Both the position numbers and the translations under genes were made by a program. Source: Deinococcales bacterium (GTDB lineage Bacteria > Deinococcota > Deinococci > Deinococcales > JAAFIG01). From it: DNA of 35,160 nucleotides. The notes beneath the pieces were generated by a model that worked only from the letters and a program-made list of their open reading frames with translations, made no database searches and had not been told where the DNA came from. Of the stretch, positions 144 to 5,510 are shown piece by piece. The stretch spans positions 1 through 35,160 of the forward strand of contig JANNVX010000056.1 of NCBI GenBank assembly GCA_031414595.1. Reading direction: 5' to 3'. The stretch's first letter is position 1. Every line of letters begins with the position of its first letter.

Positions 144-227
144 AGGAATCGGAGGGATTTGAACCCTCGAGACATCAGTCTTTCTTCTTTAGCAAAGAAG
201 TGCAATAAACCACTCTGCCACGATTCC
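144..227 (-). tRNA. tRNA-Ser(GCT), duplicate copy without encoded CCA
   Basis: Identical to 949-1032. GGAATCG/CGATTCC acceptor, CTTCT-TTGCTAA-AGAAG anticodon arm, long variable arm; followed by TTT rather than CCA. Confidence 0.8.
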
Positions 228-229
228 AT

Positions 230-347
230 TGGCGAGTCTGACAGGATTTGAACCTGCAACAATACGTGTTGGAGACGTACTTTTTGCCCCTTAAAGCAGC
301 ACCTGACGGGCTTGGGGCGCTCCCTTAGCTAGTCGGGATTCAGACTC
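230..347 (-). pseudogene. tRNA-Trp(CCA)-like duplicate carrying a ~40-nt insertion between the D arm and anticodon arm
   Basis: Matches 1035-1112 except that 42 nt (280-321) replace 2 nt, plus one D-loop substitution. Confidence 0.7.
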
Positions 348-569
348 TTAAAATTCAAGATTTACAACACTATCAGCAGCAAAATCAGAATTCTTGACTT
401 TCTTAATCAATTCAGAAAGGCGCATCGAAACCGCCATTGAAAACACCTGATGTTCTTCGCCACTTTGTTCTCGAGCCACCGAGATTGGAACACCAGAAAC
501 AACCACCTGCACACCTTTTTTGGTGATGTAAGTGTAATCAATTCTAGTTTCGGGAGCAATCACATTCAT
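348..569 (-). CDS. Putative antitoxin, YgiT-type zinc-finger-like fold but lacking cysteines
   Basis: 73 aa ORF with GAGG RBS; VVVSGVP motif resembles YgiT-type xxIxxVP; lies directly downstream of a DUF4258-like ORF. Confidence 0.5.
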   Translation of the reverse strand: MNVIAPETRIDYTYITKKGVQVVVSGVPISVAREQSGEEHQVFSMAVSMRLSELIKKVKNSDFAADSVVNLEF

Positions 570-597
570 GTTGACCTCGAGTATACGACTAAAGCAC

Positions 598-921
598 TTA
601 AATTGTATGAACTGTAATCACAATGTAGGAATCAAAAAACGAAACCTTGACGCGAATCCAACGCTTATCGGGAATCTGATACTCGAAATTAATTCCTGCC
701 ATACGAGATAAATTATTATTTGGCAAATCTTTAGAAACTGCTTTACCAAACAAAATAGCTTCAAACAAGGCAACTGGTGCAATATCTTCATCTTGGGCTG
801 CTACAAATGCGTGAGGATGAATTTTGATTTCCTCGCGCCATAGTGCAGTATGAATAAAATCCAATTCCCACTCGAGAATATCCGAAGTTGAAAAATCGAA
901 ACCAGTGGGTAAATCAGGCAC
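598..921 (-). CDS. DUF4258-like putative RNase toxin
   Basis: 107 aa; H-P-H-A...I....L.EAI..G and C-terminal IVITVH pattern typical of DUF4258 proteins; TATACT 5 nt before the GTG start. Confidence 0.6.
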   Translation of the reverse strand: MPDLPTGFDFSTSDILEWELDFIHTALWREEIKIHPHAFVAAQDEDIAPVALFEAILFGKAVSKDLPNNNLSRMAGINFEYQIPDKRWIRVKVSFFDSYIVITVHTI

Positions 922-945
922 AAGAAAGTATACATTGAAAATTTT

Positions 946-1032
946 TGGAGGAATCGGAGGGATTTGAACCCTCGAGACATCAGTCTTTCTTCTTTAGCAA
1001 AGAAGTGCAATAAACCACTCTGCCACGATTCC
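946..1032 (-). tRNA. tRNA-Ser(GCT)
   Basis: Cloverleaf with anticodon loop TT-GCT-AA, long variable arm, GGTTCAAATCC T arm, encoded CCA. Confidence 0.9.
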
Positions 1033-1034
1033 AT

Positions 1035-1112
1035 TGGCGAGTCTGACAGGATTTGAACCTGCAACAATACGTGTTGGAGACGTAGACCCTTAGCCAGTCG
1101 GGATTCAGACTC
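1035..1112 (-). tRNA. tRNA-Trp(CCA), atypical D arm
   Basis: GAGTCTG/CAGACTC acceptor, TACGT-CTCCAAC-ACGTA anticodon arm, G73, encoded CCA; A instead of U at position 8. Confidence 0.8.
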
Positions 1113-1117
1113 AAAAG

Positions 1118-1198
1118 AGGAAAGCAAGGGAATCGAACCCTTGAAGCATAAGCCCAGCCGTTTTCAAAACGGTGTCCTCGACCCACCGGACGCTTTCC
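1118..1198 (-). tRNA. tRNA-Ser(TGA), atypical D arm, no encoded CCA
   Basis: GGAAAGC/GCTTTCC acceptor, anticodon loop TT-TGA-AA, variable arm, GGTTCGATTCC T arm. Confidence 0.75.
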
Positions 1199-1200
1199 AT

Positions 1201-1273
1201 TGGAGACCTCGCTCGGAATTGAACCGAGACTCTTTGGTTTGCAGCCAAAGCCCATGCCGTCTGGCTCGAGATC
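1201..1273 (-). tRNA. tRNA-Cys(GCA)
   Basis: TTTGG-CTGCAAA-CCAAA anticodon arm, U73, encoded CCA; weak D arm. Confidence 0.8.
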
Positions 1274-1280
1274 AAGATTT

Positions 1281-1493
1281 TGGTGGAGGAGGCGGGACTC
1301 GAACCCGCATATTCGGCACTGTCGGTTTTAGGAAACCCGCTTCCTGCGGCAAGTTACAAACCCACTCGAGATTCGTCGTCTCGAGTCGCCAGCCAGTGCA
1401 TCCGGAACCTCCGACGGTTTTTGACCTGTGCCGCAGCTATTACGCTTACCGAATCCAAGTTTTGCGGTGCGCTCCCGTTTGCGCTACTCCCCC
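1281..1493 (-). ncRNA. 213-nt tRNA(Ala)-like RNA with a large structured insertion (possible miniature tmRNA)
   Basis: GGGGGAG/CTCCTCC acceptor with G3:U70, A73 and CCA; GCGC-AAACGGGA-GCGC D arm; GCGGG-TTCGAGT-CCCGC T arm; ~160 nt between the D and T arms. Confidence 0.75.
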
Positions 1494-1504
1494 ATGTGAG
1501 ATTT

Positions 1505-1582
1505 TGGTGTTCCTTCAGGGACTCGAACCCAGACTTTTCAGTGTCTTAAGCACTGCGCCTCTACCAATTGGGCTAAAGAAAC
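1505..1582 (-). tRNA. tRNA-Leu(TAA), short variable region
   Basis: CAGTG-CTTAAGA-CACTG anticodon arm, A73, CCA. Confidence 0.85.
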
Positions 1583-1583
1583 A

Positions 1584-1659
1584 TGGTGCGTTCGGTAGGA
1601 GTCGAACCTACAGATTCTCGGGTTTGAACCGAACGAGTTTGCCATTCCTCTACAAACGC
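1584..1659 (-). tRNA. tRNA-Leu(CAA), short variable region
   Basis: TTCGG-TTCAAAC-CCGAG anticodon arm, A73, CCA. Confidence 0.85.
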
Positions 1660-1686
1660 AAATCTCGAGGATTACCCAAGAATTTT

Positions 1687-1762
1687 TGGTACGCCGAGCG
1701 GGACTCGAACCCGCAAGCTCCTCGTTCTAAGCGAGGTGAGTTTGCCATTTCTCTATCAGCGC
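1687..1762 (-). tRNA. tRNA-Leu(TAG), short variable region
   Basis: CCTCG-CTTAGAA-CGAGG anticodon arm, A73, CCA. Confidence 0.85.
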
Positions 1763-1788
1763 TTAATTCCCTCGAGACTCGAGGATTA

Positions 1789-1865
1789 TGGTGTCCATGA
1801 CGGGATTTGAACCCGTAAATTCTTGTCGCTCAAACAAGTGACTTTGCCAATTTGTCTACACGGAT
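1789..1865 (-). tRNA. tRNA-Leu(GAG), short variable region
   Basis: CTTGT-TTGAGCG-ACAAG anticodon arm, A1:C72 mismatch, A73, CCA. Confidence 0.8.
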
Positions 1866-1902
1866 ACAGTGGAAATTTGGTGCATGAACCCATATGATTC
1901 AT

Positions 1903-1978
1903 TGGTGCAGATTGGGAGAATCGAACTCCCGTTATTTGCATGGCAAGCAAGCGTCTTCAACCACTAGACGAAATCTGC
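1903..1978 (-). tRNA. tRNA-Gly(GCC)
   Basis: GCAGATT/AATCTGC acceptor, loop TT-GCC-AT, CCA; discriminator A73 (bacterial Gly usually U73). Confidence 0.85.
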
Positions 1979-1984
1979 AAAAAG

Positions 1985-2056
1985 CCTCTGCTTGTGTGGC
2001 AATTCTTTAAGCGGTGAATTGCCCTTTGCTCCCGCTCGAGCAAAGAAAAACAGAGG
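1985..2056 (-). ncRNA. Unknown three-way-junction RNA element with complementary hairpin loops
   Basis: Closing stem 1985-1990/2051-2056; 8-bp hairpins at 1998-2023 and 2024-2045; loops contain AGCGG and CCGCT. Confidence 0.5.
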
Positions 2057-2076
2057 TGAAGACCCAAAAGGGTCTG

Positions 2077-2150
2077 TGGAGCAGAAGGACAGGTTTCGCA
2101 CCTGCGTCTCGCCTCGGAAAAGGCGCATCTTGCATTTAGAAGACTTCTGC
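2077..2150 (-). tRNA. tRNA-Gly(TCC)-like, 6-nt anticodon loop, GTGC T loop
   Basis: GCAGAAG/CTTCTGC acceptor, U73, CCA; CGCCT-TTTCCG-AGGCG anticodon arm; T arm GCAGG-TGCGAAA-CCTGT. Confidence 0.65.
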
Positions 2151-2151
2151 A

Positions 2152-2227
2152 TGGAGCAGTCAGTGGGAATCGCACCCACATTCTCTGGTTGGAAGCCAGA
2201 CATCTTAAGCTATTGGACGATGACTGC
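2152..2227 (-). tRNA. tRNA-Gly(TCC), GTGC T loop
   Basis: TCTGG-CTTCCAA-CCAGA anticodon arm, T arm GTGGG-TGCGATT-CCCAC, U73, CCA. Confidence 0.85.
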
Positions 2228-2228
2228 A

Positions 2229-2306
2229 TGGAGGTTTTGACAGGAATCGAACCTGCGTTCTTTTGCTTACAAGGCAAGCGCTCGAGCCAACATGAGCTTC
2301 AAAACC
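2229..2306 (-). tRNA. tRNA-Thr(TGT)
   Basis: GGTTTTG/CAAAACC acceptor, loop CT-TGT-AA, CCA. Confidence 0.9.
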
Positions 2307-2349
2307 ATATGGCGTTGCTATTTTAGAACTATTTTAGTATCATTTATCC

Positions 2350-2754
2350 ATGAATCAGATTCTTAATATCCAATTAATTTCAGGTGATCAAATTTTATTA
2401 AGACTCGAGTATCCAACGACTATTTCTCGAGAGCTATTACTTGAGCGTATCCCGCTTCTTTTCGGAGAAGTTAAAGGAGTAAATACTATGAAAGTACCAA
2501 CTGGTGTCTCAAAATCATATATGCAACTTGCTCGTTTTCTTTTACAACAAGAAAATAATGAAATAAAAATTACTTTTTCGCAGCTTGAAAAGGAGTGGAA
2601 TCAACCGTTGCCACGTTCTGCTCGAGTGCATAGAGCTTGGTGGGGAAACACGGAAAATCCGACACATGTCCATGCGAGTTCTTGGATGCTAACTGGTTGG
2701 AAAGTAGAAACAATTGATCTCGAGAATGAGGTTGTCGAATTTATTAGGAACTAA
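2350..2754 (+). CDS. Small hypothetical protein, antisense to the tRNA array; C-terminal domain with TF..LE.....LP.SA..H..WW.N motif (DUF7662-like)
   Basis: 134 aa, AT-rich ORF; TATCAT 6 nt before ATG; an alternative start at MKVPTG has a GGAG RBS. Confidence 0.7.
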   Translation: MNQILNIQLISGDQILLRLEYPTTISRELLLERIPLLFGEVKGVNTMKVPTGVSKSYMQLARFLLQQENNEIKITFSQLEKEWNQPLPRSARVHRAWWGNTENPTHVHASSWMLTGWKVETIDLENEVVEFIRN

Positions 2755-2768
2755 AAAAGTTTTGAAAA

Positions 2769-2844
2769 TGGTGGGTTTCCTCGGGTTTGAACCGAGACCG
2801 CGCAGCTTAAAAGGCTGCTGCTCTACCAGTTGAGCTAAAAACCC
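2769..2844 (-). tRNA. tRNA-Lys(TTT)
   Basis: Canonical cloverleaf, GCAGC-CTTTTAA-GCTGC anticodon arm, CCA. Confidence 0.92.
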
Positions 2845-2870
2845 ATGTGGGACAAAATCAGTCCCATGTT

Positions 2871-2945
2871 TGGTGATCTCGAGGAGAATTGAACTCCTTC
2901 CTGTCGGGTGAAAACCGCGTATCCTGACCATTAGACGACGAGACC
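2871..2945 (-). tRNA. tRNA-Glu(TTC)
   Basis: GGTCTCG/CGAGATC acceptor, loop TT-TTC-AC, CCA; imperfect anticodon stem. Confidence 0.82.
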
Positions 2946-2948
2946 ATT

Positions 2949-3024
2949 TGGAAGGGAAACTGAGAGTCGAACTCAGATTTGACAGCTTCAAAGACTGTTG
3001 CGTTACCAATTACGCTATTTCCCT
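2949..3024 (-). tRNA. tRNA-Gln(TTG)
   Basis: ACAGT-CTTTGAA-GCTGT anticodon arm, CCA. Confidence 0.88.
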
Positions 3025-3035
3025 GTATTTCGGAA

Positions 3036-3119
3036 TCTCGAGCAAGTGATGTATCACATACAGGATTTGAACCTGCTCTCCGTGAGGATAACCAATAACT
3101 GTGATACTTCGGCTCGAGA
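3036..3119 (-). ncRNA. Candidate Y RNA (Ro60/Rsr-binding stem plus tRNA-like T arm)
   Basis: TCTCGAGC-C-GAAG...CACTT-GCTCGAGA terminal stem containing the GNCGAAG motif; inner stem GTATCACA/TGTGATAC; T arm GCAGG-TTCAAAT-CCTGT; no full anticodon arm. Confidence 0.65.
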
Positions 3120-3122
3120 AAA

Positions 3123-3422
3123 TTAAATGCTGACTGGTGCATAAATGCGAACTTCTGTTTCGAGGCGTGAGGCTAATTTTCGGCGTTCGATTTCAAGGTC
3201 AAAATTGGTTTGTAAGTTCAACCAGAAACGTTCTGAATTGCCAAAGAATCGTGCAAGTCGCAAGGCGGTTTCGGTACTAATGCCGCGTTTGCCAAGCACA
3301 ATTTCGTTAATACGACGGGCTGGCACACTGATATTTTGTGCAAGTCGGTATTGGCTAAGTCCAAGTGGCTCGAGAAATTCGTACTGTAGTATTTCGCCCG
3401 GGTGAACTGGTTCAAGTTTCAT
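3123..3422 (-). CDS. higA: HigA/VapI-family antitoxin (HTH XRE), no adjacent toxin
   Basis: HPGEIL..EFL.PLGLSQY.LA....V...RINEIV.GKR.IS..TALRL.RFFG.S..FWLNLQ signature. Confidence 0.9.
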   Translation of the reverse strand: MKLEPVHPGEILQYEFLEPLGLSQYRLAQNISVPARRINEIVLGKRGISTETALRLARFFGNSERFWLNLQTNFDLEIERRKLASRLETEVRIYAPVSI

Positions 3423-3438
3423 GCTTACCTATTGTACT

Positions 3439-3514
3439 TGGTCGAGAGACTTGGAATTGAACCAAGACTTACTGTGCTTCAGACAATCGTGCAGACCCAC
3501 TACACCATCTCTCG
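3439..3514 (-). tRNA. tRNA-Phe(GAA)
   Basis: CGAGAGA/TCTCTCG acceptor, ATTGT-CTGAAGC-ACAGT anticodon arm, CCA. Confidence 0.85.
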
Positions 3515-3516
3515 TT

Positions 3517-3589
3517 TGGGTGCGGTGGTGGGAGTTGAACCCACCAGCCGAGCTTATGAGACTCGGCGCATCACCGGACGCACACCGCA
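3517..3589 (-). tRNA. tRNA with CAT anticodon (Met, or Ile2 if lysidinylated), reduced D arm
   Basis: TGCGGTG/CACCGCA acceptor, loop CT-CAT-AA, CCA. Confidence 0.8.
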
Positions 3590-3617
3590 TTAAAGGTTGA
3601 CGCGCACACCGCATCAT

Positions 3618-3691
3618 TGGTCGAAGATGATGGAATCGAACCATCGTTGCCTGCATATCAGACAGGTGTCCTACCATTGGACGAATCTTCG
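3618..3691 (-). tRNA. tRNA-Ile(GAT)
   Basis: CCTGT-CTGATAT-GCAGG anticodon arm, CCA. Confidence 0.88.
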
Positions 3692-3748
3692 TTTCTCCTC
3701 GAGTTATTAGGAGGTAATACTCGAGGGGTGCGCTATTTTTTAGCGCTC

Positions 3749-3824
3749 TGGTCGGTGCGGTAGGGGTCGAACCTACGACTTCTGCTTTGTAAGAGCAGCA
3801 CTCATACCACTGAGTTACGCGCCG
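3749..3824 (-). tRNA. tRNA-Val(TAC)
   Basis: CTGCT-CTTACAA-AGCAG anticodon arm, CCA. Confidence 0.92.
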
Positions 3825-3856
3825 TTAATCTCGAGAACAGCAAAATTCTCGAGATA

Positions 3857-3931
3857 TGGTGGAAAAGATCGGATTTGAACCGATAACCTTCGCTGTGCAA
3901 AAGCGCTGCTCTCCCGTTGAGCTACTATCCC
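3857..3931 (-). tRNA. tRNA-Ala(TGC)
   Basis: G3:U70, loop TT-TGC-AC, A73, CCA. Confidence 0.9.
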
Positions 3932-3974
3932 ATGTGTGAACTGGTTACTATCCCATGTGGGGGTTTAACCCCTT

Positions 3975-4051
3975 TGGTCGAGCGTGCAAGAATTGAACTT
4001 GCCTAATGTCCTGTGTCCAAAACAGGAGACCCTCCTTGAGTCTGACGCTCG
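3975..4051 (-). tRNA. tRNA-Pro(TGG)
   Basis: C1:G72, A73, CCTGT-TTTGGAC-ACAGG anticodon arm, CCA. Confidence 0.85.
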
Positions 4052-4059
4052 AGAATTTA

Positions 4060-4133
4060 AGATTCGGATAGGAATTGAACCTATGACCTTTGGCTTCGCA
4101 TACCAATGCTCGTTTCCACTGAGCTACCGAATC
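4060..4133 (-). tRNA. tRNA-Arg(GCG), no encoded CCA
   Basis: GATTCGG/CCGAATC acceptor, TTGGT-ATGCGAA-GCCAA anticodon arm. Confidence 0.8.
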
Positions 4134-4141
4134 ATGATTAT

Positions 4142-4218
4142 TGGTGAACCGAGCAGGACTTGAACCTGCGGCTTCCATGTTAGAAGCATGGCACTCTGTT
4201 CCACTGAGTTATCGGTTC
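4142..4218 (-). tRNA. tRNA-Arg(TCT)
   Basis: CCATG-CTTCTAA-CATGG anticodon arm, CCA. Confidence 0.92.
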
Positions 4219-4225
4219 TTAAAGT

Positions 4226-4301
4226 TGGAGAATCGGGCAGGACTCGAACCCGCAACATCCACGTTCGACGCGTGGCGCTCTATCCTTTGAACTACCGATT
4301 C
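4226..4301 (-). tRNA. tRNA-Arg(TCG), G33
   Basis: CCACG-CGTCGAA-CGTGG anticodon arm, CCA. Confidence 0.82.
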
Positions 4302-4331
4302 AGGTACTCGTGTGAACTACCGATTCAAGTT

Positions 4332-4407
4332 TGGTAGCCGCGAACAAGTGGATTCTCGAGGGGCGTAATCATTGGAAGTGATAACCCTCGAGATTCGGCT
4401 CGCAGTT
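4332..4407 (-). ncRNA. Second candidate Y RNA
   Basis: CTGCGAGC-C-GAA...CCACTT-GTTCGCGG stem with the same motif as 3036-3119; inner stem TCTCGAGGG/CCCTCGAGA; ends in ACCA. Confidence 0.6.
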
Positions 4408-4408
4408 T

Positions 4409-4483
4409 TGGCGGTTCTAACGGGAATCGAACCCGTATTGCCTGAGAGACAGTCAAGCATCGTAGCCGTTGGAACATAGAACC
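4409..4483 (-). tRNA. tRNA-Asp(GTC)
   Basis: CTTGA-CTGTCTC-TCAGG anticodon arm, G73, CCA. Confidence 0.87.
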
Positions 4484-4511
4484 ATTTTCATGGTGTCAAA
4501 CACAGACCCTA

Positions 4512-4586
4512 TGGCTGACTCGGTAGGGATCGAACCTACGACAACCTGATTAACAGTCAGGCACTCTACCTCTGAGTCACGAGTCA
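4512..4586 (-). tRNA. tRNA-Asn(GTT)
   Basis: CCTGA-CTGTTAA-TCAGG anticodon arm, G73, CCA. Confidence 0.92.
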
Positions 4587-4591
4587 ATAAA

Positions 4592-4673
4592 TGGATACGG
4601 AAGGATTTGAACCTCCATTGTCTTTTAGACGCTTGGGCTACAACCAAGTGCAATACCGTTCTGCCACATACCC
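4592..4673 (-). tRNA. tRNA-Tyr(GTA), no encoded CCA
   Basis: CTTGG-TTGTAGC-CCAAG anticodon arm, variable arm GTCT-AAA-AGAC, A73. Confidence 0.87.
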
Positions 4674-4707
4674 ATGTGGATGACTGGTATGTCATCCGTA
4701 AAGCTCG

Positions 4708-4909
4708 AGGTGTACGCCCCAAGCGTGTATCGTCTTTAAGAATAATCGTGATTACACCGTACAGTGCAACAGCATTCACGTTTTCTAAGGGAGAAAAATT
4801 TGGCATTCGAGTTGTCAAGGAATTCACTCAGAGACGAGTTCTAGTCGTCGCAAGCAGTTTGGGTGTTGGTGCTTCTCGAGGACACGAATTCTCGAGTTGG
4901 CGTACACCT
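4708..4909 (-). ncRNA. Unknown ~200-nt multi-branched structured RNA
   Basis: Perfect 11-bp closing stem AGGTGTACGCC/GGCGTACACCT enclosing several hairpins; fills the gap between tRNA-His and tRNA-Tyr. Confidence 0.55.
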
Positions 4910-4910
4910 G

Positions 4911-4986
4911 TGGGTTCATCGTCGGGAATCGCACCCGAGTTTCTAGGGTCACAACCTAGCGTCTTGTCTATTGGACGACAACGAAC
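4911..4986 (-). tRNA. tRNA-His(GTG), first gene of the array
   Basis: G-1:C73 pair, CTAGG-TTGTGAC-CCTAG anticodon arm, GTGC-type T loop, CCA. Confidence 0.88.
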
Positions 4987-5303: not shown

Positions 5304-5510
5304 GCGTAGATGTGCTTAGTGTGGTACTAAGCCATTTGACGCGTGAGGGCTGCTCCCAAAAACCAATCCACCTGTCTATTTTGACATCTCCCATGCCTAT
5401 CTTGACCTCACAGCAGCACCTGTCTTGACCACATACGCGCACCTATCGGGCGTGGTCGCTTCGGGCTTGGGTCGCTAAAAGCAGAGAATTTCGGTCTTTC
5501 TCACCGAAAC

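Follow-up and report, generated by a model that had tools for sequence, protein, structure and literature searches.

The window analysed here is a complete 35-kb contig of 35,160 nucleotides from the 4.49-Mb assembly of a Deinococcales bacterium (GCA_031414595.1, contig JANNVX010000056.1). The locus is chromosomal, with nusG, rplK and rplA before a tRNA array and ordinary metabolic genes plus tuf after it. Outside the array, ARAGORN finds 41 more tRNAs and a canonical transfer-messenger RNA (tmRNA); because the rest of the genome has these 41 tRNAs of its own, the array is a supernumerary long array. Among its tRNA genes, all on the same strand, positions 1281-1493 (minus strand) hold a 213-nt unit with ordinary tRNA ends and a large folded domain in place of the short variable loop, with tRNA-Leu(UAA) 11 nt before it and tRNA-Cys 7 nt after it. 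From its sequence and that of its homologues, this element is probably the gene for a stable, structured non-coding RNA with a complete tRNA frame, which we interpret as a tRNA-framed scaffold RNA.

The 213-nt RNA is not called by standard tools. ARAGORN reports 27 tRNAs in 144-4674 and none over the element, Rfam at gathering thresholds reports 26 tRNAs in the window (including a His tRNA at 4914-4985) and nothing over it, and the Rfam tRNA model (RF00005) has no match there even with E up to 10; the RNA lacks the cloverleaf with anticodon loop that defines a tRNA. Scans for promoters and terminators were uninformative. The tRNA ends are as a first-pass annotation, made from the window's sequence, had described them: a 7-bp acceptor stem (GGGGGAG/CTCCTCC; 1487-1493 with 1285-1291) that includes G3:U70, followed by A73 (1284) and CCA (1281-1283), a D arm at 1469-1484 and a T arm at 1292-1308, both of which covary or pair across 29 copies. 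A separate tRNA-Ala gene at 3857-3931, also named there, has the anticodon UGC.

Homologues in Deinococcales, metagenomes and phages

Homologues were sought by BLAST over 363 genomes of the order, with a covariance model (R1) and with core patterns on genome, metagenome and viral contigs. Full-length homologues occur in 23 genomes, at 10 metagenome loci and on 3 viral contigs, so the 213-nt RNA is more than a chance arrangement; its carriers range over four families of Deinococcales and metagenome contigs to a complete phage of 306 kb. BLAST recovered full-length copies in 10 genomes of the window's own family (the window's genome, G000, included) and in Calidithermus chliarophilus, together with 3'-half matches in 12 Deinococcus genomes. 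Model R1, on which the window element scores 256.6 bits and ordinary tRNAs ~44 bits or less, confirmed 11 of the 12 Deinococcus copies as full-length (108-169 bits) and scored a divergent 251-nt copy in genome G258 at 58 bits. The first core pattern hit 36 loci on genome contigs, 11 of them true by eye (all Deinococcales) and 25 chance matches inside coding sequence; two viral matches of this pattern were also judged to be chance. All 10 loci found with the core pattern on metagenomes match R1. On viral contigs the core pattern yielded one locus, on a 306-kb record (L121) with terminal repeats that is rated 100% complete, and a looser pattern yielded copies on two more contigs (L122 and L123; 43.8 bits on R1). 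The element had no BLAST match in the phage collection, and the first viral pattern matched nothing either.

The RNA is embedded in tRNA arrays in the window's family (f1), in Calidithermus, on several metagenome contigs and in the 306-kb phage, and the same core is found in tRNA frames that differ in acceptor and D-arm sequence. No Rfam family reaches threshold on the element or its homologues, and a full-text search of the literature returned no description of the 213-nt RNA, with the supplements of PMC4201824 and PMC8421152 as places that might list related RNAs. The RNA apparently belongs to an undescribed family common to Deinococcus relatives and giant phages, and the evidence comes close to bearing out the alternative offered by the first-pass annotation, a new class of RNA whose ends are of alanine type.

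A covarying fold with a conserved rod

The fold model of 53 pairs in 13 helices (Table 1) was scored on alignment A5, which comprises 29 distinct copies of 205-251 nt, against 500 shuffles and slid controls; near-duplicates (L010, L090, L116 and L117), a truncated copy (L119) and the late finds L122 and L123 were left out. Across the alignment, 95.4% of cells are paired, compared with 76.8% in shuffles and 44-55% in slid controls, 37 of the 53 pairs show double changes (both sides), and none of the 500 shuffles reaches any of five measures. The covariation counts of nine helices lean towards the search model because those helices were in it. Pa, Pn, Pk and Pm were outside the search model, yet they covary, and RNAalifold on its own recovers Pn, Pk, Pm, H2 and Pz and adds the pairs 89:157, 90:156, 95:155 and 96:154.

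The first-pass annotation was right about the ~160 nt between the D and T arms and mistaken that they replace the anticodon arm, since a hairpin (Px) still stands at that position, one base after the D stem. Its loop of 9-16 nt starts with an A-run and then C. This A-rich loop has no anticodon geometry and cannot decode. Px is followed by a small hairpin (Pw). The remainder is an irregular rod of ~130 nt, a nested series Py-Pa-Pz-Pn-Pj-Pk-Pm-H2 with invariant bulges and internal loops, and it occupies the variable-arm position, because its closing strand stops five unpaired bases short of the T stem. Bases that are both invariant and unpaired are concentrated in TTGCGGATGCA-type, GTGGG and GGAAGC-N3-TTTCC strands. 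The core is near-invariant across the 29 homologues and better conserved than acceptor identity, as in the copy from genome G010, which has two acceptor mismatches and an intact core. The third pair of Pm holds only in f1-type members.

A pseudoknot between AAAC of the Px loop and GUUU of the rod is suggested by the fact that these bases can pair in 29/29 copies. The base that follows the A-run and the one that precedes the U-run form C:G in 27 copies, G:C in 1 (a double change in G001) and U:G in 1; on the evidence of this single compensatory event, AAAC:GUUU pairing appears to tie the A-rich loop to the rod.

Of the pairings first proposed for the insert, ATTCGGTA/TGCCGAAT and CTGCGGCA/TGCCGCAG have 35-69% of cells paired per helix across the 29 homologues, and their strands have other, covarying partners; GTCGG/CCGAC does pair (it is Pz, with double changes at 5/5 pairs) and is nested instead of crossing. 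Two hairpins from the energy fold, CCGG/CTGG (RNA 89-101) and CGC/GCG (RNA 146-156), were dropped, as they are not kept in Deinococcus or phage members. A supposed likeness of Pw to a 23S rRNA loop was likewise discarded: the loop varies among members, and its 13-mer has no other copy in the genome. The copy in genome G013 (L085:1501-1746) has an extra hairpin of 33 nt inserted where the 3' strand of Pz gives way to that of Py, and 40-70-nt insertions replace Pw or Pa in L093 and L118; the rod therefore tolerates insertions at defined points.

Table 1 Features of the 213-nt RNA gene in window coordinates, with RNA positions and support in the 29 copies
Feature	Window	Strand	RNA positions	Support or detail
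Whole tRNA-framed RNA gene	1281-1493	-	1-213	Model R1 256.6 bits
Acceptor stem, 5' strand, holds G3	1487-1493	-	1-7	Helix 1: 98% paired, 6/7 double changes
Acceptor 3' strand (1285-1291), A73 (1284), CCA (1281-1283)	1281-1291	-		ACCA 19/29, A73 25/29
D arm, 4-bp stem GCGC/GCGC, GG in loop	1469-1484	-	10-25	Helix 2: 98.3% paired, 3/4 double changes
Px hairpin, loop starts AAAAC, not 7 nt	1449-1467	-	27-45	Helix 3
Px pair types	1449-1467	-		CCGC/GCGG, CCGG/CCGG, CCGA/TCGG and CTGG/CCAG among them
Px-loop AAAC, proposed pseudoknot with GTTT at 1333-1336 (RNA 158-161)	1459-1462	-	32-35	Single double change
Pw short hairpin, variable loop, GNRA in other members	1435-1446	-	48-59	Helix 4: 94.6% paired, 2/3 double changes
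Py 5' strand, rod base, pairs with 1314-1319	1428-1433	-	61-66	Helices 5 and 6: 6/6 double changes
Py 3' strand, then 5-nt linker (1309-1313) before T stem	1314-1319	-	175-180	Helices 5 and 6
Pa small hairpin, 4 bp and GNRA loop in Deinococcus and phage members	1416-1426	-	68-78	Helix 7
Pz 5' strand GTCGG, pairs with 1321-1325 (CCGAC)	1411-1415	-	79-83	Helix 8: 99.3% paired, 5/5 double changes
Pz 3' strand	1321-1325	-	169-173	Helix 8
Pn 5' strand (RNA 84-86) and conserved strand TTCCGGATGCA (RNA 87-97)	1397-1410	-	84-97	Helix 9; pair 84:164 GU 14, AU 7, GC 6
RNA 89-90 and 95-96, pair with RNA 154-157	within 1397-1410	-	89-90, 95-96	89:157 GC 17, CG 7; 90:156, 95:155 and 96:154 near invariant
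Pk 5' strand, pairs with 1344-1346	1394-1396	-	98-100	Helix 10; pair 100:148 UA 16, GC 9, CG 2, AU 1
Pm 5' strand, pairs with 1348-1350	1388-1390	-	104-106	Helix 11; pair 105:145 CG 11, GC 11
H2 apical hairpin, variable length, GNRA loop in Deinococcus members	1364-1386	-	108-130	Helix 12: 97.6% paired, 6/7 double changes
Core 3' half: GGGTTTGTAACTT, Pm 3', Pk 3', invariant GGAAGC, GGGTTT, Pn 3' (CCT)	1330-1363	-	131-164	Invariant columns
T arm, GCGGG-TTCGAGT-CCCGC	1292-1308	-	186-202	Helix 13: 100% paired; Rfam aligns it to tmRNA/tRNA T arm

Alanine identity is common but does not define the family

G3:U70 is the determinant recognized by alanyl-tRNA synthetase (AlaRS). Among the 29 copies, pair 3:70 is GU in 20, AU in 5, GC in 2, CG in 1 and UU in 1, A73 is present in 25 and an encoded ACCA in 19. 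Phage-type copies have C1:G72, A3:U70 and no CCA, and G3:U70 and ACCA are both present in the metagenome copy L118 and the viral copies L122 and L123. Because only 20/29 copies have G3:U70 and 19/29 ACCA, alanylation is not a defining property, and because the core is kept where the acceptor stem is damaged (G010), alanine identity is common in the family, and probably ancestral, without defining it. The proposed new class with alanine identity is borne out in part: it holds as far as a conserved structured family without an Rfam entry is concerned, and is limited on identity by the 20/29.

These ends raise the possibility of an alanine-charged RNA that acts on the ribosome or in other aminoacyl transfer, for example in rescue without a tag or as an alanine donor whose decoding loop is caged by its own arm. 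The frequencies of G3:U70, A73 and ACCA, their presence also in L118, L122 and L123, and an intact minihelix of acceptor and T arms would suit such a role, which is at odds with the phage-type, G258, L114, Calidithermus, G001 and G010 copies, all of which keep the core without G3:U70, and with the several copies that lack CCA. There is also no conserved reading frame in the family, true tmRNAs coexist with the RNA, and the loop at the anticodon position, 9-16 nt long, appears to be paired. We regard this account as improbable.

Frequent association with Ro60 and Y RNAs

A search for TROVE (Ro60) genes over the 363 genomes was scored for the 23 confirmed carriers. Ro60 lies on the same contig within 1.1-5.6 kb of the RNA in 9/23 (G002, G003, G006, G007, G010, G017, G018, G130 and G258), where Y RNAs too lie within 6 kb, and anywhere in the genome in 15/23; no TROVE gene was found in the other 8/23 (G000, G001, G013, G021, G029, G085, G086 and G171). 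The window's genome (G000) is among those without a TROVE match, and since its contig ends 143 nt after the last tRNA, this absence may be an assembly gap. A sister genome (G006) with a 99.5% identical element has the order array, BrnT-like open reading frame (ORF), two tRNA-framed Y-like RNAs and Ro60. The G258 copy is located in a non-coding stretch of 2.2 kb that also holds three tRNAs and several Y-like units and precedes Ro60 and RtcB. The RNA is thus steadily associated with tRNA arrays, and its link with Ro60 is frequent and not obligatory, as no TROVE gene was found in 8/23 carriers or in the phage.

In the G258 stretch (L108:8600-10790), six or more units carry a motif of the GGCCGAAG...TTCGTTATC type, and one such unit scores 37 bits on Rfam YrlA. 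Its tRNAs are tRNA-Glu(UUC), tRNA-Gln(UUG) and tRNA-Lys(CUU), and Glu, Gln and Lys are the isoacceptors that some anticodon nucleases attack. Between array and Ro60 in sister genomes and Deinococcus there is another type of tRNA-framed RNA, with an open 7-bp acceptor stem, D and T arms and a hairpin that bears a CCGAAG-type Ro60 motif (L015:361-490, L014:313-541, L013:774-1000, L112:197-422, L126:3201-3327 and 3333-3490, and L125:37-174 and 195-322). Several have G3:U70, A73 and CCA, and some have 100-nt insertions in the hairpin loop. They have the appearance of Y RNAs of the Yrn1 type whose acceptor end is truly tRNA-like.

Y RNAs consist of a tRNA-like module and a Ro60-binding module (Chen et al. 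2014, PMC4201824), and the 213-nt RNA shares with them the tRNA-like D and T arms (helices 2 and 13). It might be viewed as a divergent Y RNA whose rod is a Ro60- or PNPase-binding module and which works only in a Ro60 particle. This would fit the nine carriers with Ro60 within 6 kb, the G258 copy, which has Y-like RNAs around it and Ro60-RtcB directly downstream, the open tRNA frame that the neighbouring Yrn1-type Y RNAs have in common with the element and the expectation of further unrecognized Ro60-bound RNAs (Chen et al. 2014, PMC4201824); it sits poorly with the 8/23 carriers and the complete phage in which no TROVE gene was found. With the Ro60 motif defined as GNCGAAN0-1G or a bulged helix (PMC4201824), the GNCGAAN0-1G form occurs in 2/29 members, there only as a GNRA hairpin that is variable elsewhere; Rfam YrlA and Y_RNA have no match on the element, and the inner domain has no sequence likeness to Y RNA interiors (z at most 0.9). 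We therefore consider a Y RNA assignment, on these sequences, unlikely. By eye, shared GAAGCGGG and CTTGCC made the 3' core look similar to the part of neighbouring Y RNAs that binds Ro60, an impression dropped after local alignment (z <=0.9 against shuffles).

Unspliced sequence in RNA libraries

Twenty listed sequencing runs hold part of 1035-1865, five of them on record as RNA, and four runs were mapped. Three RNA-seq metatranscriptome runs, from three studies, each have one contig wholly inside the element, covering 1292-1439 at 100% identity, 1293-1451 with 2 differences and 1319-1465 with 5. The remaining library bears a metatranscriptome label, though it may be DNA, and has a 219-nt contig spanning 1282-1493. 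Unspliced sequence is thus present in RNA libraries. No spliced joint was found in the four mapped runs, in which contigs drop rare forms and small tRNAs are poorly captured, and no element contig runs into a flanking tRNA. A separate contig (X17) differs from the window at 9 letters and has 5 gaps; it covers 1584-1743, over the two upstream tRNA-Leu genes (1584-1659 and 1687-1762). The intervals 1035-1281, 1494-1583 and 1744-1865 have no cover in any of the four runs, and such contig holes prove nothing about tRNAs.

These data bear on whether the element is a normal tRNA gene that contains an intron, either self-splicing or taken out by enzymes, as its insert within a tRNA frame, and a core shared among frames with differing acceptor and D-arm sequences, as a mobile intron might show, could suggest. 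By inspection of the alignment, excision of any single stretch leaves no 5-bp anticodon stem with a 7-nt loop, and the helices needed as exon-intron boundaries (Px and Py) covary as intact structures. No group I, group II or other intron model matches 1230-1540 with E up to 10, and the RNA-library contigs hold the insert uninterrupted, with no joint found. An interrupted tRNA gene is thus very improbable.

Relation to tmRNA

The first-pass annotation also read the element as a miniature tmRNA with a 26-codon tag frame (AAQVKNRRRFRMHWLATRDDESRVGL, from 1434). The frame is open in the window and is not conserved: in the homologous register it runs to 1-51 codons, is shifted by indels in Deinococcus copies, has no conserved first codon and crosses covarying helices, a loss that counts against the tmRNA reading. 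The motifs TGGATTCG and ATAGCT-GCG lie in variable loop and stem parts of two hairpins, are not conserved, and leave the family without a conserved resume signal. What resembles a tmRNA is its tRNA-like domain, with the G3:U70 acceptor, T arm and CCA all present in the window: the Rfam tmRNA model (RF00023) matches the ends only, at 18.2 bits (E = 1.3e-05), far under the gathering cut-off of 47, and scores other family members at 16-23 bits. Together with the covarying 4-bp D stem (helix 2) and the coexistence of true tmRNAs in host (134.7 bits) and phage (189.9 bits), this leaves the miniature tmRNA as the least credible of the alternatives, barely tenable. The phage tmRNA lies ~900 nt from the phage copy of the 213-nt-type RNA; it is a full tmRNA in the same tRNA array (L121:231-575) with the tag AEESYSYALAA (ARAGORN; Rfam 189.9 bits).

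Other features of the tRNA array

The array (144-4985, minus strand, and 5488-5510) is a complete extra tRNA set for all 20 amino acids that follows nusG-rplK-rplA and a terminator-like hairpin, and many of its tRNAs have an encoded CCA. Small ORFs lie inside it at 2350-2754 (plus strand), 351-569 (minus) and 598-921 (minus), one with a DUF7662 domain (E = 1.5e-11) and the other two without a family; the sister genome G006 has a BrnT-type toxin ORF at a comparable place. A 118-nt tRNA-like unit at 230-347 (minus strand) has the acceptor GAGTCTG/CAGACTC, a T arm, a GCCA end and an interior that fits no tRNA; it scores 26.8 bits on R1 and 32 bits on the Rfam tRNA model, the latter over 233-303 only.

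Interpretation

We favour, with some confidence, a scaffold RNA in a tRNA frame. Such an RNA would be transcribed with the tRNA array and then excised by tRNA-processing enzymes (RNase P, 3' trimming and CCA enzyme), the frame supplying stable, defined ends and, in most members, alanine identity too. The conserved rod would perform the function, most probably as a platform to which a protein or the ribosome binds. The RNA may act beside the spare tRNAs and, in many genomes, beside Y RNAs, Ro60 and RtcB, and together these systems would handle damaged RNA and stalled translation. By analogy with the neighbouring Y RNAs, we infer that the rod may contribute to how the cell responds to damaged RNA or to translation stress. 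Santamaria-Gomez et al. (2021, PMC8421152) report that translational stress induces long tRNA arrays along with rtcB.

Several observations weigh against a scaffold RNA of this kind. The Deinococcus copies are solitary and have unrelated neighbours; none is common to the 11 Deinococcus copies and G258, and among them are genes for purF, isocitrate lyase, a PEP-utilising enzyme and an AadA-like product. Four near-complete genomes (G021, G085, G086 and G171) have the RNA without Ro60, and the complete 306-kb phage has neither Ro60 nor RtcB. The scarcity of the Ro60 motif and the dissimilarity to Y RNA interiors described above count here as well. The energy of the single-sequence fold is not unusual (z = -1.59), and the contigs from mixed communities show no ends, strand or amount, with DNA carry-over possible. 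Retention of G3:U70 in 20/29 copies and in two extra viral copies hints that charging may matter, which a pure scaffold role leaves unexplained.

A wider proposal, which we advance tentatively and regard as doubtful, is that the 213-nt RNA represents a new class of ribonucleoprotein RNA, derived from tRNA and carried from host to host by giant phages and mobile tRNA arrays, in which an often alanine-accepting tRNA body has its decoding loop locked to a hypertrophied, conserved variable arm. The rod might then be a module that binds a ligand, a protein or the ribosome, or a catalytic one, and would act during translation stress or where phage and host compete over tRNAs, independently of Ro60 and distinct from tmRNA.

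tRNA arrays in bacteria and giant phages are usually read as spare tRNAs; here the array also carries a strongly conserved structured RNA, which joins tmRNA and Y RNAs as a third type of tRNA mimic. Its frame is shared with tRNA-Ala, its neighbours in several genomes are Ro60, Y RNA and RtcB genes, and the phage copy stands beside the phage's tmRNA. The open tRNA-like acceptor end common to Deinococcales Y RNAs and the 213-nt RNA bears on the origin of tRNA mimics. The covariation-supported fold is ready for structural and binding studies, and Calidithermus chliarophilus DSM 9957 is a cultured carrier.

Comparison with known systems

Group I introns occur in tRNA genes such as cyanobacterial tRNA-Leu and Azoarcus tRNA-Ile, and the 213-nt RNA resembles these genes in having a structured insert of >100 nt inside a bacterial tRNA frame; unlike them, it has a nested rod instead of a P3-P9 core, matches no intron model, and its exons would not form a tRNA. 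With tmRNA (SsrA, RF00023) it shares the alanine-type acceptor with G3:U70, A73 and CCA, the GGTTCGA of the T arm, a long stretch separating the 5' from the 3' tRNA-like part and occurrence in phage tRNA arrays, whereas its covarying D stem and the hairpin at the anticodon position, the lack of a conserved reading frame and of PK1-PK4 in the family, and its size (205-251 nt, compared with ~350 nt for tmRNA) set it apart. Class II tRNAs (Leu, Ser, Tyr and Sec) also place extra structure between the anticodon-arm position and the T stem, with a few unpaired bases before the latter. Their variable arm measures 10-25 nt, whereas the arm here is ~130 nt and has its own conserved core, and the 9-16-nt loop has no anticodon geometry. 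Bacterial Y RNAs (D. radiodurans Yrn1 and YrlA; PMC4201824) likewise join a tRNA-like module to a second module and have their genes among tRNAs. Those genes often directly precede Ro60 in the same orientation, within about 4 kb, whereas here Ro60 lies within 6 kb in 9/23 carriers; in contrast to Y RNAs, most members of the present family (all but 2/29) are without the Ro60 motif or binding helix, the inner domain is different and larger, and the RNA occurs in genomes and a phage without Ro60. The design would nevertheless run parallel to that of the adjacent tRNA-like Y RNAs, with a tRNA module joined to an effector module, the effector being a different one.

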